DNA from: an uncultured Gammaproteobacteria bacterium
Lineage (GTDB): Bacteria > Patescibacteriota > Patescibacteriia > Magasanikbacterales > GWA2-37-8
Assembly (NCBI GenBank): GCA_964355175.1
Contig: CAYHBZ010000002.1
Location: forward strand, 396,537 to 460,536
Length of the DNA stretch: 64,000 nt
Direction of reading: 5' to 3'
Shown here: one piece after another, positions 2,839-59,919 of the stretch
How positions within the stretch are numbered: the first letter of the stretch is position 1
How the letters are laid out: each line of letters opens with the position of its first letter
Position numbers and translations under genes: made by a program
Notes under the pieces: model-generated
What the model saw: the letters and a program-made list of their open reading frames with translations, nothing else
Database searches by the model: none
Told to the model about the DNA's origin: nothing

Positions 2839-5800
2839 ATGGCTAGAAGTAATGCGGCCAAAAACCCCGCGCTCGAAACAGCAACGCCACCAGTGGTGCT
2901 GGTGGAAGACCTAAAAGAAAAGGAAATAAAACAAAAAAAAGAAATGAAGTTGGAAAAGATTGAGAGTGTCTTTGACGCGGCGAAGGAAAGGGTGAAAGGA
3001 AAAGAAGACCACCTGGCGGCGATGCACGCGGAATTGGTAGGTTTGCTTAATCAGATCCCGGATAAGGAAAATGGGGATTTTACGGTGCGATTACATAGAT
3101 TCGCGGATAGATTTGGAACTATTAAAAACCATTTAGATAATATGGTAGCCGAAAGCCAATTGCCGGAATTGGAATCGGGTGCTTTTGCGCCAGTGGATGC
3201 GACGGAGTCGTCGCCGGTGTCAAAGAGCAATAGTCATATTTCGGAATTAAAAAATTTCAAAGATACTAGTGGTGCTATTTTAAATGGGGCTGTAAATGAA
3301 AAAATAAAAGATAAACCGATTTTTCGCGGCAGCATGGTGTTTAAAAATGGTGACCATTATGTTGGTTTCTCTATTCTCTCAGCTGACGGATCTTATAAAT
3401 TTCACGGTGAAGGTTCTCTAGAAAAGGATGGGGGTAAGATGGCGCTTGAAGGTTTTTTTCAAAATGGCAAATTAAAAAATGGCCATCTGATTGAAAAATT
3501 AGCAGATGGTAGAACAAGAGTGGTATTTGCTGAAAATGAAAAAGCTGCGCGAGTTGAAACTGGATATTTTAATAGCAACAATCAGTTGGAAGGAGTGGGA
3601 GAAATTATTGATCAAAAACACGGTGTTAAAGAGCGTGGAGATTTTGTGAACGGCGAGCTTCGTGATGGTTATGTGGTAGATCTGATAAGCGGTAAACCGT
3701 TGGAAAAATGGGAAAATGGCAAACAAGTCGAAGCGGGAGAAAATTTACCAGCCGAAATCACTAATTCGGAAAAAAGTTTTGACAGAAGACTGGCTGCCAG
3801 AGAAAAAGAAAGAGAAATCAAAGTCGAAGAAGTTTTTGAAGCAGTCTCCGGTCTAGATGGTTTGGTAAACTTTGAGGATGTTTCCAATCAGGTTTTAAAT
3901 GGGAAAATCACTCACACGCCTAAAAGCGAACATATTTTTGACGGAGAAATAAAATCCGACAGTAGAGGCTATAAATACCAAGGCCAGGCTATTTTGGAAA
4001 GTGACGGTGTTTTCAGATTCCACGGCCAAGGAAAGCGTACCGCTGAGATGGCTTATGCAGGAAAGGTAGAACAGGAAGGTGAATTTTCCTATGGAACTTT
4101 TTTGAACGGTGTAGGAATATATACTGGCCAAGATATGGGCTACGGTGCAGATAAAGTTACAGAAAAAATGGAAAATGGCAAGACTGTAGAAAGAGTATTT
4201 TATCTTGAAAAATACAAAGATAAAAAGGATGTATTATTTGCCGGTCAGATGTTTGAAAAAGAATTTTCCAAAGACAATCTATATGTCGGTGAATTCACTA
4301 TGCCTAATGGCTCCGTATATAAAGGAGAGGCCTTTAAAAATAAAAAAGGTCAATTTGAATTGGTGAGCGGAAAGTCAGAGAGAATAAAATCCGCTACAGT
4401 GATAGATAAGTTTAAAGATTTATTTAGATTTGGTAGAAATAAAAAAGAAGAATCAAAATTAGCTACAGCCGAAGTTCAATCGGAAGTTGAGGCAGAAGCA
4501 GAACAGGCTCCGGAAGTTGTGGGCGAACAAGCGTTTCTTCTCGTCACTCCTGGAGGAGAAAATTACGCACTTAAAGGTATCGCCACTGATCAATCCGACG
4601 GCAGTAGGAAATTTAATGGAGAAATAAAAAATATTGATAACGGTGGTGAAGAGACTGGCTTCCAATATTCTGGTGAAGCAATTCTTTCTAGTAACAATGA
4701 AATAACTTTTCATGGCAAAGGAAAAAAGAGTGGCGCCTTTTTTGATGAAACCGGTGAATGGAATATGGGTGAGTTGGAAAATGGTGAAATCCATTCTAAA
4801 GATGGAGAACTTTTGAAAAAATATGTAAATGGACAAGAGGTGGCCGTGACCAAACCAGCTGAGAAGTCCAAAGAAAAAAGTTGGATCGGTAAAAAGTTGG
4901 AATCAGCCAAAGAGTCTGTAGCTTCCGCGTACAATTTTGTCACTACCAAAGAAGGAGCAAGGTTATCCAACCAAGCGGCCTATAAAATTGCCACTGGTTT
5001 TGTTGGTATTAAAATTGGAACGGATATAGCTTTGGCGGCCTATGCTGGCGCTTTGAATAAAGTTGGTGAAAAGGATTGGTTTTCGGAAGCTTTTAAAAAA
5101 CGATTGAAAGAGGAAGCGGCTGTAGCCGGAGAGTATAGTGATGTCTATAAACATCTGGGTGGTAGGGAGCAGATAGCTGCTATCAAAGCTGGATTTGCCG
5201 AATTTATGTCGGCCGTAAATCCAGAAGAAAATGAGAATGTGGAATTGAATCTGGTAGACGAGAAATATTCCGCTCTCAAAGCAAAAATCGAATCCTCCAA
5301 TAGAATCAACCAAGAAGCCAAAGGAAAATTTTTGGCTAAATTGGAAGAGATAAACCAAAAATTTGATCACAGAAATGAAAAGTTGGATGAACAGGAAGTG
5401 GCGGAAGCTAGCGCTTATATGAAAGCCTATATCGTAAATGATACGGCTGCTATGCAGATTGCCAGAGATAGTATCAGTGGCGTGGCCAAAGCGGTGATGG
5501 TTGGTGCCAGTGGCGGTAGCAGTCTTCTTTTGGCAGGAGCTATCGGCAGGGTGATGGGTATGGCCACTACCAAAGTAGTGGAGCGTGCGCAAAAAAGCCG
5601 CAGATTCAATGAACAAGCGGCATTGGAAAACAAAAAGACATTTAACGCCGCCGAGGATATCAAAGCCGCTTTGCTTGAGACAATGCACGGTTTGACTTTT
5701 AGTAAATTTAACGCGGGTAAAGATGTAAAGACCGGCAAAGATCTGGACAAGAAAGCTCTCTTTGCCAATTTTGCTAAATCGTTTGGTAATGTATTGATAA

Positions 5801-10641: not shown

Positions 10642-12063
10642 ATGCGTAACCGGTTTCAATTGGTCGCGACTCTCGCGATGGCGGCTGCAGCCTGTGCAGC
10701 GTGTGGTGTCATCGAACATCCGGCCGATGCGGTCGTGATCGTGGTCGAAAAAGACGCCAGCAGCCAGGATGTCCAGCAGGACAACGGTCCGGCGCAGCAG
10801 CCCGAGATCGCGCAGACGGCCGACATCGCGCAGGACAACGGTCCGGCGACGAAGCCTGAGTGCGCGGTCGACAGCGACTGCGACGACAAGAACCCCTGCA
10901 CGACGGACGTCTGCGGCAGCAACGCCTGCGTCCACGTGGCCAACTCGGTCTCGTGCGACGACGGCAACGCCTGCACCAGCAACGACAAGTGCGGCTCCGA
11001 GAAGTGCTCGGGTGACCAGAAGGTCTGCGACGACAACAACCCCTGCACCGACGACGGCTGCGTCAGCGACGGCACCTGCCTGCACGGCGTCAACATCGTC
11101 AACTGCGACGACAGCGACGCCTGCACGGAAAAGGACCAGTGCGCCAACGGTAAGTGCGTCGGCCAGGTGAAGTCGTGCGACGACAAGGACAACTGCACGA
11201 CGGAATCGTGTGACAAGCTCAACGGGTGCTCGTCCACTCCGGTCGTCTGCCAGGACGCCGGGGATCCGTGCACGACGGAATCGTGCGACAAGGCAACGGG
11301 CAAGTGCTCGTCCACCACCGACTGCGACGACAAGGACGTCACCACGTTGGATGCCTGTGAACCGCTGCTCGAGACCGTGGGAATGGAGAAATGCCTCCAC
11401 ATCAAGATGCAGACCAAGTGCACCAAGAATGCGGATTGCGACGAGGACGGCGATCCGTGTTCGTTCGAGTTCTGTTCCCAGATCGGCTACTGCGCCAGCA
11501 AGTGGAAGTTGTGCGATGACGGAGACTACTGCACCCAGGACGAATGCGTCCCTCAGGCCGACTACGCCTGGTGCAAGAGCACTCAATACTCATGCGACGA
11601 CTACAACGCCTGCACGCTGGACTCCTGCACCAACGGCTACTGCCAACACAAGGGCAACGCCGCCATGTGCGACGACAAGGACTCCACCACCGCCGACTCG
11701 TGCAACCCTTCCCAGGGCTGCGTCAACACGCCGATTCCTCAACCCGGCGTGCCGAGCTCGACTCCTCCCTCGAATCCCTCGACCTGTGCGGCCTGGGGAG
11801 CGTGGATTTACTTGCCCACGGGCAACTGGCGCGGCGGCTATGACCTGACCGGTTCGTCTTCGCAAGAAACGGACCTGACAATCAGCGTCGACCAGTGGTA
11901 CGGCTTCAGCAACGCTCATTCTGTGTGGGCGTGGCTCAAGCCGTGGGGCAGTGCGGTACCGGCAAGCGTCAAGTGCACTGATCGGTGTGGTGTGGTCTTC
12001 CCCGCGAAGATCAGTGCCATGGCGGGTGGCTTCATCGCCATCTGCAGCACCGACCAGAAGTAG
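10642..12063 (+). CDS. GC-rich cassette C: Cys-rich repeat lipoprotein/secreted protein (tandem C-D-D-x-N-x-C-T-x-D-x-C units, Dicty_CTDC-like)
   Basis: GGAGG 5 nt before ATG; N-terminus MRNRFQLVATLAMAAAACAAC (signal/lipobox-like); 12 or more repeats of ~24 aa with spaced Cys; unrelated ~120-aa Trp-rich C-terminal domain. Confidence 0.75.
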   Translation: MRNRFQLVATLAMAAAACAACGVIEHPADAVVIVVEKDASSQDVQQDNGPAQQPEIAQTADIAQDNGPATKPECAVDSDCDDKNPCTTDVCGSNACVHVANSVSCDDGNACTSNDKCGSEKCSGDQKVCDDNNPCTDDGCVSDGTCLHGVNIVNCDDSDACTEKDQCANGKCVGQVKSCDDKDNCTTESCDKLNGCSSTPVVCQDAGDPCTTESCDKATGKCSSTTDCDDKDVTTLDACEPLLETVGMEKCLHIKMQTKCTKNADCDEDGDPCSFEFCSQIGYCASKWKLCDDGDYCTQDECVPQADYAWCKSTQYSCDDYNACTLDSCTNGYCQHKGNAAMCDDKDSTTADSCNPSQGCVNTPIPQPGVPSSTPPSNPSTCAAWGAWIYLPTGNWRGGYDLTGSSSQETDLTISVDQWYGFSNAHSVWAWLKPWGSAVPASVKCTDRCGVVFPAKISAMAGGFIAICSTDQK

Positions 12064-19185: not shown

Positions 19186-19300
19186 GAGGACGCAAAATCC
19201 CCCCAAGGGTGTGTCGTTTACTCGACACTACCTGCTTAGTTCGCAAAAAATTGTTTGCTGAGCAGAATAAAAAATCCGCTATTATGGTGGATTTTTTAAT
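19186..19300 (+). repeat. 3' repeat R1, copy 1 (three hairpins, the last a terminator)
   Basis: About 80% identical to 20118-20238; bulged hairpin GGTGTGTCG-TTTACT-CGACACTACC; ends AAAAAATCCGC...GGTGGATTTTTT. Confidence 0.6.
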
Positions 19301-19330
19301 CTAAAATATGCTGTTTTTAGGTCAGTAGTA

Positions 19331-20117: not shown

Positions 20118-20238
20118 ACAGGACAAAAAATCCCCAAAAGGGTGTGCCGACTGAAAAGTCGGCACTACCTGCTTAATCAATAAAACATTGTTTATTGAGC
20201 AGAATAAAAAATTCACTTTGAAAGGTGGATTTTTTAAT
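20118..20238 (+). repeat. 3' repeat R1, copy 2
   Basis: Same three-hairpin layout as 19186-19300; stem 1 differs by paired substitutions (GGTGTGCCGAC / GTCGGCACTACC). Confidence 0.6.
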
Positions 20239-20245
20239 TAGTTTT

Positions 20246-33793: not shown

Positions 33794-34000
33794 ATCGGAT
33801 ATTCTATCAGAAATAAGGGTATTTTACAAGGAATAAAAAATACCCTACCAAAGGTAAAGTATTTTTATAATAATGCCTATTTTACCGAGATCTCCTGTTA
33901 AATTTTTACCAATATATTTGATAAAGATTTAGCATTGGGAGATCTTGGTGGACCGCGACCTCCCAACGCCAGACTTGCGTCGGTCTGTCGGTAGGCGAGT

Positions 34001-34354
34001 CTACCAGGCGCCCATGGGCTGAGACGTAGGCTTGGCGACTTCCAGTTCCTGGGCCGTGGCCAGACGCGCTCCGGCACAGGTGCCCAGCACCCACTGGATC
34101 ACGAGCAGGTCACCGACCTTGGTCTCCTTGGGGACGAACAACGGGAAGCCGCTGCGGTCCTCGTCGGCTCCGCGCTTGTGTTCGTTCTCTGCGAAGTAGC
34201 GATGGCCGCTCTTGTCGCTACGTCCGAGCACGTAGAAGATCGGAGTCTCCGGATGCTGGTCGGCGTTGTTGCTGTCGCGACGGATGAGTTTGCCTTGGGG
34301 TACAAAGATACCGACACCGGTTTCGAGCCGGAAGACACCGTGAAAGATAAGCAT
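34001..34354 (-). CDS. GC-rich cassette F: 117-aa soluble protein, no recognised family
   Basis: AAGGA 6 nt before ATG; GC3-biased frame on minus strand; own promoter and leader hairpin. Confidence 0.6.
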   Translation of the reverse strand: MLIFHGVFRLETGVGIFVPQGKLIRRDSNNADQHPETPIFYVLGRSDKSGHRYFAENEHKRGADEDRSGFPLFVPKETKVGDLLVIQWVLGTCAGARLATAQELEVAKPTSQPMGAW

Positions 34355-56121: not shown

Positions 56122-56206
56122 GGAGAGGTCGCATAGTGGCCGAGTGCGCCGCCTTGGAAAGGCGGTATACCGCAAGGTATCGAGGGTTCAAATCCCTCTC
56201 TCTCCG
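56122..56206 (+). tRNA. tRNA-Ser (anticodon GGA), long variable arm, CCA not encoded
   Basis: Hand-folded: acceptor GGAGAGG/TCTCTCC, anticodon stem CCGCC/GGCGG with loop TTGGAAA, 16-nt variable arm, T-arm GAGGG-TTCAAAT-CCCTC. Confidence 0.85.
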
Positions 56207-56244
56207 CTGGGTCACGCTTATATGAGCAAAGGGTTCATATTCCA

Positions 56245-56276
56245 AAAACATCTCGACTAAGTCGGGATGTTTTTTT
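56245..56276 (+). terminator. intrinsic terminator after tRNA-Ser
   Basis: AAAACATCTCGACTAAGTCGGGATGTTTTTTT. Confidence 0.65.
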
Positions 56277-56405
56277 ACCAGATAAAAAAATAATTCTTCA
56301 TAAAAACACACCGTCGGGTGTGTTTTTATATTGACAAAAATGTATTTTTAGTATAGGCTCTAGCCTGATCGTTCTCGCGGATTTCTCGCGCTACAGGAGG
56401 ACATC

Positions 56406-56774
56406 ATGGCAGATTCTCTGCCGTTCCAAGAAGATCTGCGTAAGCCATTCCACATCTCAGTCTGCGACCGGATCGCTCTCTGCCTCACGGCAATGAGCAT
56501 CTCCGGTGGAAGGGAGATCCCGCTCGGCATCCAGGAGGTGACCAGAGACCTGGATCTCTTGGACAAGACCAAGGTCCCGGCCAAGGAACTGCCCAGTGTG
56601 ACAAAGGCCCTCTACGGCCTGCGGGTGATGTACGGCCCTCTCATGCCGACGGTTTCTCAGCGCCTGACCCAATCGATCGACCTCTTGGTCGTGTATCAAG
56701 AGGAGCTGGCCGAGGATGGCAAGCTGGATCGCGACCTCGTGTGGTTGCCGCCTGTCGTCGACCCGGTAGCCTAG
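56406..56774 (+). CDS. GC-rich cassette G: 122-aa soluble protein, no recognised family
   Basis: AGGAGG 5 nt before ATG; GC3-biased frame; TTGACA at 56331. Confidence 0.6.
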   Translation: MADSLPFQEDLRKPFHISVCDRIALCLTAMSISGGREIPLGIQEVTRDLDLLDKTKVPAKELPSVTKALYGLRVMYGPLMPTVSQRLTQSIDLLVVYQEELAEDGKLDRDLVWLPPVVDPVA

Positions 56775-56900
56775 CTGGTCTGTAGATTTTCACCCGGTCT
56801 TCGTCTATGTCCGGGTTGAGAGGTGTTCATACACCACTCCGTCCCGACTTAGTCGAGACGTGAATCACCGCAAGGTAGTGACGAGAACATCAGACATTCA

Positions 56901-56970
56901 GACTGTTCGCGCTCACTTAAGATTATAACTTGATTATAGTTTTAAGTGACGAACAGTCTTTTTGTTTTTT
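56901..56970 (+). terminator. long hairpin terminator of cassette G
   Basis: AGACTGTTCG..TCACTTAA-(AT-rich apex)-TTAAGTGACGAACAGTCT followed by TTTTTGTTTTTT. Confidence 0.6.
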
Positions 56971-57041
56971 CTAAAGGATATTTTATAGATACGGATGGCA
57001 ATACTTTTGGTTTGCATCAGCCGGATGAAAAGGCGGCATAA

Positions 57042-57070
57042 TTGACTTTTTTGAATTTAATCGCTAAAAT
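57042..57070 (+). promoter_or_regulatory. sigma70-like promoter of cassette H
   Basis: TTGACT, 17-nt spacer, TAAAAT. Confidence 0.55.
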
Positions 57071-57105
57071 GGTGTTCAGCCATTTTGGCTTTTTGGAGTT
57101 TCGCC

Positions 57106-57327
57106 ATGAGTGTAAAATATCGTCCGGGAACCGGCAGGGAGCCGCGCATCTTCCATGAGAGTATGGGCTTGCCCAGCCGGACGGTCGTTCAGATCGACTG
57201 GTGGACCTGTCCGAACCTGATCGTGAAGGATGAGCAGTTCGGAAATCGCGAACTCTGTGACTTTCAGAACCCGTCTTGGGAACACAAGTGCCAGGGTTGC
57301 GGTGCCGATCGTCCCGATAAGTCCTAG
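57106..57327 (+). CDS. GC-rich cassette H: 73-aa protein with RanBP2-like zinc-ribbon (WWTC...C-x3-N-x6-C-x2-C-GA-x-RP)
   Basis: TGGAG 7 nt before ATG 57106; GC3-biased frame; C-terminal motif shared with cassette I. Confidence 0.6.
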   Translation: MSVKYRPGTGREPRIFHESMGLPSRTVVQIDWWTCPNLIVKDEQFGNRELCDFQNPSWEHKCQGCGADRPDKS

Positions 57328-57335
57328 GAGGACTC

Positions 57336-57362
57336 ATGCGTATCCGCGCACCCCCGCCTTAA
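57336..57362 (+). CDS. putative arrest-type mini-ORF MRIRAPPP*
   Basis: Stop of cassette H embedded in TAGGAGGA; ATG 3 nt after the SD; 8 codons ending RAPPP-stop; homologous to 58764..58793. Confidence 0.4.
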   Translation: MRIRAPPP

Positions 57363-57387
57363 AAAAGGCACAGGGAAGTAGCGGAAT

Positions 57388-57453
57388 AAAAACCGCCGCC
57401 AACCTGTTTTGTTTCCAAATACAATTGGAGATGGGATAGGCTGGCGGTTTTTT
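57388..57453 (+). terminator. long hairpin terminator of cassette H
   Basis: AAAACCGCCGCCAACCTGTTTTGTTTCCAA...TTGGAGATGGGATAGGCTGGCGGTTTTTT. Confidence 0.6.
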
Positions 57454-57455
57454 GT

Positions 57456-57484
57456 TTGACTTCCAGAGAGGGATTTGATAGTTT
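57456..57484 (+). promoter_or_regulatory. sigma70-like promoter of cassette I
   Basis: TTGACT, 17-nt spacer, TAGTTT; -35 abuts the terminator T-run. Confidence 0.45.
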
Positions 57485-57523
57485 TGATGGGCGCAAATTT
57501 CGCGCCAACCAGTGAGGAACACA

Positions 57524-57925
57524 ATGACTTGTGGTCAACGTCGCAAACTGCGTCTTGATATGATCGTGGTCAAGGGCTGGAACGGTCGTCGCCTCTCCAA
57601 GGGGTGTCGGAAGTACATACGCCGTCACCTGCCTCTGGAATGGCAGGCGATCGAGGATCGTGCTCAACAGGAGCGTGAGCTGGTGCGGCAGATCGAGCTG
57701 CACAAGGCGGCTGCTCGCAACAAGCAGACGGCTACGCGGCCGAGCTTCTCCGCGCCGTCGTTCGCTACGGCGAAGCCTGCACCGGTGCCGGTCAAGCCTC
57801 CGCGGGATCCATGGTGGACCTGCAAGGCCGAAACCAAGGGAGGTTATTTCTCCGGCGCCTGCAACGAGCTGAACTACAGTAATACCTCCTGCACCTACTG
57901 TGGTGCGGCTCGCCCGGCAGCGTGA
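57524..57925 (+). CDS. GC-rich cassette I: 133-aa basic protein with C-terminal RanBP2-like zinc-ribbon
   Basis: GAGGA 5 nt before ATG 57524; C-terminus PWWTC..(11)..C-NEL-N-YSNTS-C-TY-C-GAARP, paralogous to cassette H tail. Confidence 0.6.
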   Translation: MTCGQRRKLRLDMIVVKGWNGRRLSKGCRKYIRRHLPLEWQAIEDRAQQERELVRQIELHKAAARNKQTATRPSFSAPSFATAKPAPVPVKPPRDPWWTCKAETKGGYFSGACNELNYSNTSCTYCGAARPAA

Positions 57926-57931
57926 GGAATC

Positions 57932-57958
57932 ATGCACTACTCCACCGGACCGCCTTGA
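57932..57958 (+). CDS. putative arrest-type mini-ORF MHYSTGPP*
   Basis: Stop of cassette I embedded in TGAGGA; ATG 3 nt after; 8 codons ending GPP-stop. Confidence 0.35.
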   Translation: MHYSTGPP

Positions 57959-57988
57959 AATATAGGTGGGCAGGGCGGAGGAAGATTA

Positions 57989-58053
57989 CATCGACCACCA
58001 AACTGCTTTGTATGAAAATTTTTTATATAGAGCAGAGTGGTCGATGTTTTTTT
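57989..58053 (+). terminator. long hairpin terminator of cassette I
   Basis: CATCGACCACCAAACTGCTTTGTAT...ATATAGAGCAGAGTGGTCGATGTTTTTTT. Confidence 0.6.
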
Positions 58054-58064
58054 ATTTGAAATAC

Positions 58065-58093
58065 TTGACAAAAGCTCTATTTTTGTCTATAAT
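58065..58093 (+). promoter_or_regulatory. consensus sigma70 promoter of cassette J
   Basis: TTGACA, 17-nt spacer, TATAAT. Confidence 0.6.
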
Positions 58094-58197
58094 CATTAGT
58101 TAATTAATGGTCATCATATGATGCACGCCCAAAGAGGTTGGTCGTGTTTCATACCGTGATCCGTTAAGGAACATGGGCAACTCGCGTAGGGGGAAAT

Positions 58198-58746
58198 ATG
58201 TTGGAAATCATTTTGGAACCGAAGCTCAAGAACAAGTTCCTGACCGCTCGGGTCAAGGCGCATTGCGGGGTCATGACATGGTCGTTTTGCACCGCTGAAG
58301 GCGGTGTGGCGATCATCGAAGCGTTCGTCCGCGAACGCGTCTGGGGCTGGCAGGAAACTCGTCCGCTCTGCCGCCAGATGGAAGCGACTTTCCCCAAGGA
58401 TGCCAGCAAGTTGGCCGCCTGGCTCAACATGTTCGAGTCCTCCTCGTGCGATGTGGCCGTTCAGCCCATCCATCTCGTGGATCAAGCCGGCGCTTCCCTC
58501 GCTATCAGTGGCAACCAGCTGCATGATGGTGTGGTCGCTACGATCGGTACGGCCGTCTGCATGCTGGATCACTACCTCGTTCGCGGGGTGTTGCGCAACG
58601 GCGACTGCATCTCCGCGACGCAGCAGATGCTCCAGGCTGGCATGACCGACGTCATTTCGGAAAAGGCGTTTCGTGCTTTGACCGGTGGCATTCCGCTGTC
58701 CGGTTTCAACGAGTACGACTACCGTCGGATGGTCGGTCAACTCTAG
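58198..58746 (+). CDS. GC-rich cassette J: 182-aa soluble Cys-containing protein, no recognised family
   Basis: GGGGG 4 nt before ATG; clear GC3-biased frame. Confidence 0.65.
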   Translation: MLEIILEPKLKNKFLTARVKAHCGVMTWSFCTAEGGVAIIEAFVRERVWGWQETRPLCRQMEATFPKDASKLAAWLNMFESSSCDVAVQPIHLVDQAGASLAISGNQLHDGVVATIGTAVCMLDHYLVRGVLRNGDCISATQQMLQAGMTDVISEKAFRALTGGIPLSGFNEYDYRRMVGQL

Positions 58747-58763
58747 TCAAAGAGGAGGAGAAC

Positions 58764-58793
58764 ATGGTTTCTATCCGTGCTCCGCCCCGATAA
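58764..58793 (+). CDS. putative arrest-type mini-ORF MVSIRAPPR*
   Basis: AGAGGAGGAG then 3 nt then ATG, 17 nt after cassette J stop; 9 codons containing IRAPP. Confidence 0.4.
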   Translation: MVSIRAPPR

Positions 58794-58824
58794 AGGGCGA
58801 TAGGAAGGAGTACGGAGACAAAGA

Positions 58825-58888
58825 AAGCCGCGCACCAACCTATTTTGTTTCTAAATTTTTGGAAATAGAATAGGGTGCGTGGCTTTTG
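58825..58888 (+). terminator. long hairpin terminator of cassette J
   Basis: AAAGCCGCGCACCAACCTATTTTGTTTCTAAAT...GGAAATAGAATAGGGTGCGTGGCTTTTGTTTT; homologous to 57388-57453. Confidence 0.6.
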
Positions 58889-58947
58889 TTTTCCCCTATA
58901 CAAAACCTCATTTTTTGTGTAGGATAAGGGTTGATAACTTAATCAAT

Positions 58948-59919
58948 ATGTACGAAATAGTCTTATTTTATAAATACATTCACATAGCCGATCCGGAAGC
59001 CTTGATGAAGGCTCAGCGACAGGTGTGTACCGACCTTGGTCTCAAAGGCCGTCTTATTATTGCTACCGAGGGAGTCAATGGTACTTTTGAAGGTACTAAA
59101 GAAAATATTGCCAAATATATTGCCATCCTCAAAAAAGATGAGCGTTTTAATAATATTCATTTTAAATTAAGTTCCGGTACGGGGGGTGCTTTTCCTAGAT
59201 TATCTATAAAAGTGCGCAATGAAATTGTGAGCTCTCATCTTGGTGAAAAAGATATTGATCCTCGCACTACGACTGGTAAATATCTACAAGCCGAAGAATT
59301 ACACGAATGGATCCATGGTGGCAAAGAATTTTATATCGTGGATATGCGTAATGATTATGAATTTGAAGTTGGCCGCTTTGCCGGTTCGATTTTGCCACCG
59401 CTGAAAAATTTTCGTGATTTATCTGGAATTTTGCCGTCTCTAAAAAGTCTCAAAGATAAAACTGTGCTTACGGTTTGTACTGGTGGTGTGCGCTGTGAAA
59501 AGGCGTCAGGGTTTTTGGTAGACAATGGTTTTGCCGATGTGTATCAGCTGTACGGTGGTATTGTGACTTATATGGAAAAATATCCAAATGAAGATTTTAA
59601 AGGCGCACTGTATGTTTTTGATGGTCGTGTCACCATGGGTTTTAATTTGACTGATCCAAAACACGAAGTGGTAGGGAAGTGTTGGTTGTGCAAAAATCCC
59701 GCTGAAAAATATTTGGATTGTGCCTTTTTACACTGTCGCGGCAAGCGTCACTTTCTCTGCTGTCAGAGTTGTGAAAAAACCAAACAAGGATATTGTGGCA
59801 CAATTTGTAAATTGAAAGAAAAATTAGGACCAGTATCGTTGACCATTGAACGTTTTTACTATAAAATAAGTAGTGTAATCAAAAAATACCATGTCCAAAA
59901 AAACCACTCTACAAATTAA
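58948..59919 (+). CDS. trhO: rhodanese-domain UPF0176/TrhO-family protein (tRNA U34 hydroxylase-like)
   Basis: N-terminal LFYKY..I.DPE...GL.GR.I.A.EG.NGT and CTGGVRCEKAS rhodanese loop; ATG 58948. Confidence 0.7.
   Translation: MYEIVLFYKYIHIADPEALMKAQRQVCTDLGLKGRLIIATEGVNGTFEGTKENIAKYIAILKKDERFNNIHFKLSSGTGGAFPRLSIKVRNEIVSSHLGEKDIDPRTTTGKYLQAEELHEWIHGGKEFYIVDMRNDYEFEVGRFAGSILPPLKNFRDLSGILPSLKSLKDKTVLTVCTGGVRCEKASGFLVDNGFADVYQLYGGIVTYMEKYPNEDFKGALYVFDGRVTMGFNLTDPKHEVVGKCWLCKNPAEKYLDCAFLHCRGKRHFLCCQSCEKTKQGYCGTICKLKEKLGPVSLTIERFYYKISSVIKKYHVQKNHSTN

Follow-up and report, generated by a model that had tools for sequence, protein, structure and literature searches.

The DNA analyzed here is a stretch of 64,000 nucleotides (nt) with a GC content of 43%, referred to below as the window, and all positions are those of this whole stretch. 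It contains an array of four small GC-rich cassettes, designated G, H, I and J, located between a tRNA-Ser(GGA) gene (56122-56207, identified by ARAGORN and Rfam), which forms the left boundary of the locus, and the trhO gene; all features described lie on the + strand unless stated otherwise. Gene calls and Pfam searches place the array in the order gatCA, a double LOG protein, lgt, the four open reading frames (ORFs) and trhO-sufCBDSU. As had been described in a first-pass annotation, the ORFs are arranged in tandem on the same strand and encode proteins of 122, 73, 133 and 182 amino acids (aa), while H, I and J have in common a 3' module composed of a mini-ORF and a terminator. It is this module, which may serve to stall ribosomes between a gene and its terminator, that represents the main subject of the current analysis. 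The exact J protein is encoded by an ENA contig of 953,736 bp and by several Logan contigs; the closest named relative derives from a metagenome-assembled genome (MAG) of Candidatus Magasanikbacteria, and the window therefore belongs to a chromosome of the Candidate Phyla Radiation (CPR; Patescibacteria).

The modular, self-contained character previously ascribed to these units was upheld, with promoters and terminators flanking the ORFs and all four units ending in long hairpins followed by T-runs. The accompanying claim that each unit has its own promoter is firm for J, which is preceded by a perfect TTGACA-17-TATAAT (58065-58093), and for H, with TTGACT-17-TAAAAT (57042-57070; 10/12), both recovered by a consensus scan, but weaker for the other two. 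The promoter-like site of G (56331-56357), read directly from the sequence, combines TTGACA, a 15-nt spacer and TATAGG (a poor -10 element); it was not listed by the scan, yet its arrangement is conserved in two relatives (L006 and L133). The weak candidate for I, TTGACT-17-TAGTTT (57449-57477), was likewise read from the sequence, falls below the scan threshold and overlaps the T-run of the H module. Across the region, the four promoter-like sites represent no excess over shuffled sequences (3.0 ± 2.0). The GC content of the four ORFs is 0.56-0.62, compared to 0.38-0.49 for the spacers and 0.38-0.40 for lgt and trhO; at third codon positions, GC content (GC3) reaches 0.68-0.77 for the cassettes, compared to 0.33-0.38 for neighboring genes, and GC content at first and second codon positions is likewise elevated. 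This elevation is confined to the ORFs, as promoters and untranslated regions (UTRs) are not GC-rich. Searches of Pfam, PHROGs, PADLOC, NCBIfam and PDB profiles returned no result that would make any of the four products recognizable, nor does any of them contain a transmembrane (TM) segment, the 19-residue windows peaking at a Kyte-Doolittle value of 1.28, which is below TM-like levels; on both counts the first-pass annotation was correct.

The module comprises, in this order, a Shine-Dalgarno (SD) sequence, a mini-ORF of 8-9 codons, a small hairpin (hairpin 1), a hairpin of 25-30 bp with a 3-nt bulge (CC-AAM-CU) and a T-run, the hairpins having been delineated by folding. In the H module, the SD GGAGGA overlaps the H stop codon and serves the mini-ORF MRIRAPPP* (57336-57362), whose Pro codons make up the 5' arm of hairpin 1 (57343-57385) with the mini-ORF stop codon at the loop; the long bulged hairpin terminator and its T-run follow at 57386-57460 and score 77.5 bits with a covariance model of the module. 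The I module has its SD (GAGGAA) at the I stop codon and encodes MHYSTGPP* (57932-57958) with a UGA stop; in its hairpin 1 (57940-57980) CCGCCU is paired with AGGUGG, and a compensatory change from U-A to C-G is seen in the I-type hairpin 1 of locus L034. Its bulged terminator and T-run (57982-58058) score 109 bits. Unlike the overlapping SDs of H and I, that of the J module (GAGGAGGAG) sits a few bases past the J stop codon, 5 nt upstream of the mini-ORF MVSIRAPPR* (58764-58793), which is followed by hairpin 1 (58774-58816) and the bulged terminator with T-run (58823-58895; 105 bits). Within the module alignment 97.5% of cells are paired, compared to 41-51% in slid controls, with compensatory changes at 15/33 pairs, and the CC-AAM-CU bulge and its adjacent bases are invariant across module types. 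Between relatives, the identity of the module amounts to 88-96%. The covariance model (R1) recovers precisely the three copies of H, I and J from the window, along with a weak match of 30 bits to the G terminator region, and no further copies in the window or the other loci. Rfam, at gathering and E-value thresholds, returned only tRNAs and sub-threshold generic hairpins, with no family corresponding to the module.

The mini-ORFs are positioned 6-18 nt past the main stop codon in three consecutive genes, and no others of this kind were found in the window. Under a loose criterion (an SD, a short ORF and Pro-Pro near its end), Markov-simulated windows contain 3.5 ± 2.2 hits; the number of mini-ORFs is therefore not significant, and the argument rests on their placement, the identity of the IRAPP sequence and conservation among orthologues. 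In the six-frame translation of the 64 kb, R[AG]PP occurs six times, and two of these occurrences are the H and J mini-ORFs, where the motif lies one codon before the stop. The R-A/G-P-P core is thus present at the C-terminus of the H and J mini-ORFs, while the I type (xxxTGPP*) is without Arg. Orthologous mini-ORFs encode MVSIRAPPQ, MYSIRAPPR, MVSIRAPPR, MNIRAPPR, MRYSTGPP and MKHPTGPP. When the H and J copies of the window were compared with those of L006, L008, L132, L134, L135 and L131, variation in the IRAPP codons was found to be exclusively synonymous (Ile ATC/ATT, Arg CGC/CGT, Ala GCA/GCT/GCC, first Pro CCC/CCG, second Pro CCG/CCC/CCA). Copies of the TGPP type differ in their N-terminal residues, and T-G-P-P-UGA is fixed save for ACC/ACT and CCT/CCC. 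One start codon has changed from ATG to GTG (in L006) and is thus retained, and all RAPP and TGPP copies possess a strong SD at the right distance, the stop codon and a length of 8-9 codons.

The comparison with other genomes indicates that the module is not tied to a particular gene. In relatives L006 and L007, tRNA-Ser is followed by G', an intact VOC/glyoxalase gene of low GC content, H', J' and trhO, with no I; in L132, VOC, J and trhO follow each other with nothing between, while L008 carries I' and J'. The relatives with these differing subsets have SufB and SufC proteins that are 97-98% identical. More distantly, a 67%-identical G follows a PhnB/VOC-type gene in L133, whose contig carries no tRNA, and in L135 a 40%-identical J-like cassette is located between the 3' end of recQ and a gene other than trhO. 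The 33%-GC contig of L034, from an unrelated genome, encodes a 79-aa protein that stands alone, contains both a TM segment and a zinc ribbon, and is followed by an I-type module (MRTTTGPP*) and a convergent gene; in L131 and L130 a 133-aa membrane protein precedes MNIRAPPK*, and the gene past the module in L131 has its own promoter. In L137, a 31%-identical J-like cassette has kept the terminator and lost the SD and the IRAPP mini-ORF. The H' cassette of L006 bears an I-type module, which is exactly what recombination between H and I modules would give. With a loose pattern (~33 bits) on genome contigs, L034 was the true match among the matches listed; a tighter pattern on metagenome contigs gave two true loci and one chance locus, and pattern scans of viral contigs gave no match. 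The module of H, I and J is therefore attached to unrelated ORFs in several genomes, the pattern matches placing it behind GC-rich ORFs of other low-GC genomes. As a separate observation, L131 contains two more GC-rich cassettes (2679-2912 and 3159-3482, with up to 67% GC), and one of these two is followed by an SD and the mini-ORF MRTTLCS*, the first four residues of which match the MRTTTGPP of L034; this may be a decayed module copy.

The non-coding scaffolds of the cassettes evolve more slowly than their ORFs. Among five genomes, the 3' flank of J is 88-96% identical, its 5' flank 73-88% and the ORF 77-88%, while in L134 a J ORF of just 61-66% nt (39% aa) identity lies within flanks that are 81-96% identical. 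Similarly, the 5' flank of H is 92% identical in L006 compared to 69% for the H ORF, and the G 3' UTR is 82-93% identical compared to 62-77% for its ORF. The picture, as judged from these alignments, would be that of stable expression scaffolds within which the coding portion changes fast or is exchanged. The J family includes two or more deeply divergent classes (39% identity) that are housed in nearly identical UTR scaffolds (J, L134, L135, L137 and P0011), which suggests allele replacement or diversifying selection; in addition, J-like genes lie directly upstream of trhO-sufCBD even at 35% identity (two P0011 contigs).

The ORFs represent real genes, and J (58198-58746, 182 aa) is under clear purifying selection. 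Comparison with two relatives gives a ratio of nonsynonymous to synonymous substitution rates (dN/dS) of 0.12-0.16, and this ratio is lower in the annotated frame than in any of the other five, on which ground antisense or other-frame coding was rejected. The synonymous distance (dS) of J, 0.50-0.63, resembles that of its housekeeping neighbors (0.65-0.86 for trhO, sufC and sufB), implying that J was inherited vertically with them. The family is rare, with five relatives among 5.8 billion clustered proteins and six clusters recovered by a J profile from 1.84 billion representatives; a PDB profile search with the J family gave no match, and AlphaFold2 gave no confident fold for J (predicted local distance difference test, pLDDT, 34). 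Between promoter and ORF, the 5' UTR contains a hairpin of ~65 nt (58107-58170; TTAATTAATGGTCAT..TTCATACCGTGATCCGTTAAGG), which is kept in all J-family cassettes, down to 31-40% protein identity, and may act as a regulatory leader. The loop in this 5' UTR is complementary to the terminator bulge over 8 nt, a pairing that was discarded because relatives do not conserve it. The J terminator is followed by a conserved stretch (58896-58947) with a promoter-like TATACA-17-TAGGAT (58896-58923) and then the trhO ATG; this stretch follows J-type terminators even in L135, whose next gene is not trhO. The trhO start is most likely the ATG at 58948 (MYEIVLFYKY.., 323 aa) rather than the GTG at 58879 of the longest ORF.

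The GC-richness of J is maintained, through selection or a local bias such as recombination-linked gene conversion. Among synonymous third-position singletons polarized in three genomes, 22 changes from GC to AT and 23 from AT to GC were counted in J, and a check with a fourth sequence gave 18 and 20, respectively. The implied equilibrium GC3 of J is 0.72 (observed 0.75), compared to 0.36 for three flanking genes, the latter value matching their observed GC3. Under the native rates ~36 changes from GC to AT and 9 from AT to GC would be expected (binomial p=9e-6). Parsimony applied to biased sequence reportedly overcounts common-to-rare changes, a point attributed to Eyre-Walker (1998), and this bias would therefore work against the equilibrium result. 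With its GC3 at substitution equilibrium, J is thus neither decaying foreign DNA nor the relic of a GC-rich donor. A literature search on GC-rich islets in Patescibacteria returned nothing specific.

Cassette H (57106-57327) encodes 73 aa from an ATG behind GGAG, with a C-terminal RanBP2-like zinc ribbon; an alternative 80-aa reading from a TTG start exists. The dN/dS of H is 0.29. Cassette I (57524-57925) specifies a basic protein (pI 10.1) of 133 aa with a coiled N-terminal half, a Pro/Ala linker and a C-terminal zinc ribbon, evolves with a dN/dS of 0.37 and has two relatives among the 5.8 billion clustered proteins. The paralogy of H and I in their zinc-ribbon tails, as reported by the first-pass annotation, was confirmed by BLASTP (E=9e-4), the common tail being a four-cysteine ribbon, WWTC...C..CGA.RP. 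H matches the RanBP2 zinc ribbon of Pfam (PF00641) weakly (E 0.003, 17.2 bits against a gathering cutoff of 27 bits), and I does not match it. Both tails carry the pattern W-x-C ... C-x3-N-x5/6-C-x2-C and fit this family in the second knuckle, but differ in the first, where 12-15 residues separate the cysteines compared to 2-4 in the family.

Cassette G (56406-56774) encodes an acidic, soluble protein of 122 aa that evolves fast: it is only 33% identical to its counterpart in L006 (dN/dS 0.64), although SufB is 97% identical there, and its dN/dS against L133 is 0.54. Two relatives are present among the 5.8 billion clustered proteins. AlphaFold2 predicted a four-helix bundle in one model out of five (pLDDT 85), for which Foldseek returned nothing with E < 0.9 from the PDB, and this predicted fold is uninformative. 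The G 3' UTR (56775-56968) is without a mini-ORF, and contains several small hairpins and a hairpin terminator of ~30 bp (folding z-score -4.7 for 56860-56985). A 20-nt inverted repeat (95% complementary, 56248-56267 and 56842-56861), formed by the tRNA-Ser terminator hairpin and a G 3'-UTR hairpin, brackets G; since the tRNA terminator of L006 differs, this repeat may be a local recombination scar. Directly downstream, comparison with relatives identified the 3' remnant of a native low-GC VOC/glyoxalase gene (56975-57041, ..DTDGNTFGLHQPDEKAA*), of which the last ~70 nt survive in the window and which is intact in L006 (821-1219) and L132. The G terminator now abuts this remnant, and most of the VOC gene has therefore been deleted in this lineage.

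The GC-rich cassette phenomenon appears to be genome-wide. The window contains further GC-rich (55-64%) ORF islets at 8.1-12.3, 18.2-20.1 and 33.9-34.4 kb, which mostly encode secreted or membrane proteins and whose ORFs each come with a promoter that is AT-rich and a terminator formed by a long hairpin. In the 18-20 kb islet, both cassettes have in common a conserved 3' UTR of another kind (19190-19310 and 20130-20245; aaaatcccc..agggtgtg..cactacctgcttag..ttgtttgctgagcagaataaaaaat.., then a short terminator), which by its sequence is a putative second family of 3' modules. On the minus strand, a frame ..GGRGPPR.. (33872-33983) is located downstream of a GC-rich ORF (34001-34354, minus strand) in the 5' arm of a long hairpin, CCACCAAGATCTCC/GGAGATCTCGG. 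RGPP is the strongest published arrest core, while the module model matches this hairpin weakly (17.5 bits); the element may be a degenerate relative of the module. Finally, the ORF at 10642-12063 encodes a 473-aa GC-rich secreted protein rich in CxDxNxCTxDxC-type repeats, which we take to resemble the Myxococcus-type cysteine-rich repeat.

The reading proposed here, to which we would give an even chance, is that four independent, moron-like cassettes make up a variable array at this locus, and that the 3' end of H, I and J parks a stalled ribosome. Each cassette would consist of its own promoter, a 5' UTR, a small lineage-specific ORF and a long terminator on a Candidatus Magasanikbacteria (CPR) chromosome, and the array would represent neither one inserted island nor a demonstrable multi-gene system. 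Ribosomes finishing the main ORF, or loading on the strong SD after its stop codon, would translate the mini-ORF and stall on it, in the TGPP type at Pro-Pro-UGA. The parked ribosome would melt hairpin 1, its footprint covering the 5' arm, at a site about one ribosome length or slightly more past the main stop and ~35 nt before the terminator stem; the P site of the stalled ribosome lies 29 nt (H), 30-33 nt (I) and 41 nt (J) downstream of that of a ribosome terminating on the main ORF. From this position it could shield the stretch between ORF and terminator of its own mRNA from nucleases, in cis, or, alternatively, a queue or collision with following ribosomes could cap the output of a possibly harmful small protein. 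Either direction of effect, shield or throttle, would fit.

Stalling on the mini-ORFs is plausible from their sequence. Pro-Pro followed by UGA is said to terminate poorly in E. coli (a finding credited to Hayes et al. in 2002). The RAPP and RGPP arrests are robust and unrelieved by EF-P, and bacterial proteomes show a strong depletion of the motif (PMC12992588); RAPP-type motifs block peptide-bond formation (PMC10951233, PMC12992588). The module probably works by the same stalling chemistry as the RAPP peptides, in a new place.

Several points weigh against this proposal. The TGPP type is without the critical Arg, very short peptidyl-tRNAs can drop off the ribosome, and arrest of a peptide of 8-9 residues on a CPR ribosome is something that we infer from the motif. 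The mini-ORF is absent from L137, from G and from the other GC-rich cassettes of the window, and is therefore dispensable for cassette function. The spacing between main stop and stall site varies (~29-41 nt), which weakens a strict collision model, and collision at a fixed spacing was rejected as a general rule. Since the mini-ORF overlaps hairpin 1, its conservation could partly reflect RNA structure, and the comparison draws on ~10 copies of the module, which represent perhaps 5-7 lineages and are in many cases closely related. With regard to composition, the polarization of changes in J relies on parsimony at a dS of ~0.6.

A broader reading, which we advance tentatively and consider rather unlikely as a whole, is that this CPR clade keeps small, fast-evolving genes in scaffolds that combine a maintained, ORF-limited GC-rich codon regime with a 3' arrest device. 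The GC regime (GC3 ~0.72 versus 0.36) would be held by selection on mRNA or decoding, or by recombination-linked biased conversion, while the IRAPP/TGPP device would be a bacterial counterpart of the 3' stall of AMD1, metering mRNA life or protein output.

The most serious alternative, though unlikely, is that the mini-ORF is not translated and that the module is purely an RNA element, for instance an unusually long terminator, a site bound or processed by a protein or RNase, or the source of a 3'-UTR-derived small RNA. The strong covariation of the hairpins and the invariance of the CC-AAM-CU bulge and its neighbors across types are what such an element would display, a terminator persists in L137 without the mini-ORF, the G 3' UTR is conserved and structured while lacking one, and the pattern of an SD, an ORF and Pro-Pro is expected by chance ~3.5 times per window. 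Against it stand IRAPP variation that is entirely synonymous, some of it breaking hairpin-1 pairs (Ala GCU/GCA/GCC opposite an unchanged A), a start codon (ATG/GTG) retained by every RAPP and TGPP copy, and the retention of SD distance, stop codon and a length of 8-9 codons.

It is less probable still that the mini-ORF, hairpin 1 and the terminator form a leader-peptide transcription attenuator, in which a stall at the Pro codons frees the G-rich 3' arm of hairpin 1 for pairing with the terminator base and permits readthrough to the next cassette or to trhO-suf. The architecture is classical, comprising a short ORF, a hairpin and an intrinsic terminator; GGUGG of the I type can pair with either CCGCC in the mini-ORF or CCACC at the terminator base, and the promoter-like site that trhO has of its own is weak. 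This alternative pairing amounts to ~5 bp, however, compared to the 25-30 bp of the terminator, and is absent from the H and J types. Furthermore, J and the gene following the L131 module have strong promoters downstream of the terminator, the next gene in L034 is convergent and leaves nothing to read into, and the promoter-like element after the J terminator is conserved even where the downstream gene differs. With next genes that are convergent or self-promoted and no conserved antiterminator, attenuator control of the next gene is therefore unlikely.

The first-pass annotation had favored a functionally linked set, with G, H, I and J forming one system of the toxin/immunity type or a small set of nucleic-acid-binding regulators. 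The tandem arrangement on one strand, the zinc ribbons of H and I (RanBP2-type zinc ribbons bind RNA in eukaryotes), the strongly basic nature of I, the fast evolution of G, H and I, as in arms-race proteins, and the location of J-family genes next to trhO-suf even at 35% identity are compatible with such a system. This proposal did not hold, and we regard it as very improbable: the presence and absence of cassettes varies among near relatives, members occur singly elsewhere, and tblastn against all loci fetched detected no co-occurrence of G, H, I and J homologues outside the syntenic relatives. In addition, each cassette has its own promoter and strong terminator, dN/dS within the block ranges from 0.12 to 0.64, and PADLOC and toxin-antitoxin family searches gave no match.

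Hardly any probability attaches to a recently acquired GC-rich island or mobile element at the tRNA-Ser gene, with the GC content of its donor, for all that the locus adjoins a tRNA gene, has a GC content of 56-62% compared to 40% for the genome and encodes orphan proteins. The suggestion that tRNA-Ser acts as an integration hotspot found no support, as its 3' end is not duplicated (the 3' 26-mer occurs once in the window at three mismatches or fewer, with no attachment-site repeat) and no integrase or transposase was called within ±10 kb. Collections of phage, plasmid and viral contigs yielded no similarity and PHROGs no match, relatives carry a native VOC gene within the array, J is syntenic, as diverged as its neighbors and at GC3 equilibrium, only the ORFs and not the promoters or UTRs are GC-rich, and no homologue from a GC-rich organism was found among the 5.8 billion and 1.84 billion sequences. 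An equally remote idea, that of integron-like, site-specifically recombined cassettes with the long hairpin as an attC-like site, can appeal to the same imperfect hairpin with its conserved bulge on unrelated ORFs in different genomes and contexts and to the module exchange seen in L006 H', but is countered by the lack of RYYYAAC/GTTRRRY cores pairing at the hairpin base (the AAC/AAA being an unpaired bulge without a GTT partner), by cassettes that have their own promoters, by interspersed native genes, by no integrase Pfam match among genes called within ±10 kb, by just three hairpin copies in 64 kb, and by the fact that ordinary homologous recombination between two modules explains L006.

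If the proposed reading of independent cassettes with a ribosome-parking 3' end is true, a RAPP mini-ORF between gene and terminator would represent a new bacterial use of programmed stalling, i.e., control of the message from its 3' end. A literature search found no published description of a mini-ORF with a stall motif between a gene and its terminator. A GC3 of ~0.72 in J, kept up 200 bp from genes at 0.36 over a dS of ~0.6, challenges the view of GC-rich islets as un-ameliorated foreign DNA and makes the J locus a clean natural system for the question of what sets local base composition. Conserved UTR scaffolds with changing or swapped ORFs would moreover point to a pool of lineage-specific proteins in episymbiotic CPR bacteria, possibly involved in host or phage interaction.

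Among known systems, the closest parallel is offered by the RAPP arrest peptides (ApdA and ApdP, and SecM with RAGP), as the mini-ORFs are small, have their own SD and encode Arg-Ala-Pro-Pro one or two codons before the stop; the arrest motif of SecM contains IRAGP, from which IRAPP differs by a Gly to Pro exchange. To our knowledge, all RAPP arrest peptides described so far act as sensors encoded upstream of a gene that they switch on, whereas the mini-ORFs follow a gene and precede its terminator rather than lying upstream of a regulated sec/yidC-type gene. They also differ in having 8-9 codons, so that the product would lie wholly inside the exit tunnel, without a signal peptide or TM sensor, and in including a TGPP subtype without Arg, their arrest being predicted from the motif. 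Leader-peptide attenuators (trp, his, erm and cat) similarly combine a short translated ORF, a hairpin and an intrinsic terminator, with a ribosome position expected to remodel the RNA, but the module is found at the 3' end of its transcription unit, has no conserved antiterminator and is followed by a self-promoted or convergent gene.

At the level of the entire cassette, phage morons, reportedly described by Hendrix and colleagues as autonomous promoter-ORF-terminator units of deviant composition, are similar in having a sigma-70-type promoter, a single small ORF, a factor-independent terminator, deviant composition and variable presence. The present cassettes are, in contrast, chromosomal and flanked by lgt, tRNA-Ser, trhO and suf rather than by a prophage, with a GC shift that is confined to the ORF and at equilibrium and a scaffold that is conserved while the ORF changes. 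Repetitive extragenic palindromic (REP) elements, which when near stop codons are said to affect both the termination of translation and the stability of the mRNA (Liang, Rudd and Deutscher, 2015), and attC sites, which mark integron cassettes, are likewise conserved imperfect palindromes just 3' of an ORF; the module differs from both in occurring three times per 64 kb, without the GTAG head of REP elements, without attC cores and with no linked RAYT or IntI seen. For the 3' tail of AMD1 in mammals, Yordanova et al. (2018) are said to have put forward the idea of a ribosome queue that limits output per mRNA. The module resembles this tail in that translation of an arrest sequence downstream of the main stop would leave a ribosome stalled near the end of the mRNA (PMC13025110). 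In the eukaryotic AMD1 system, ribosomes gain entry through stop-codon readthrough, 384 nt downstream, whereas the bacterial module would be entered through SD-driven initiation or reinitiation 6-18 nt after the stop.

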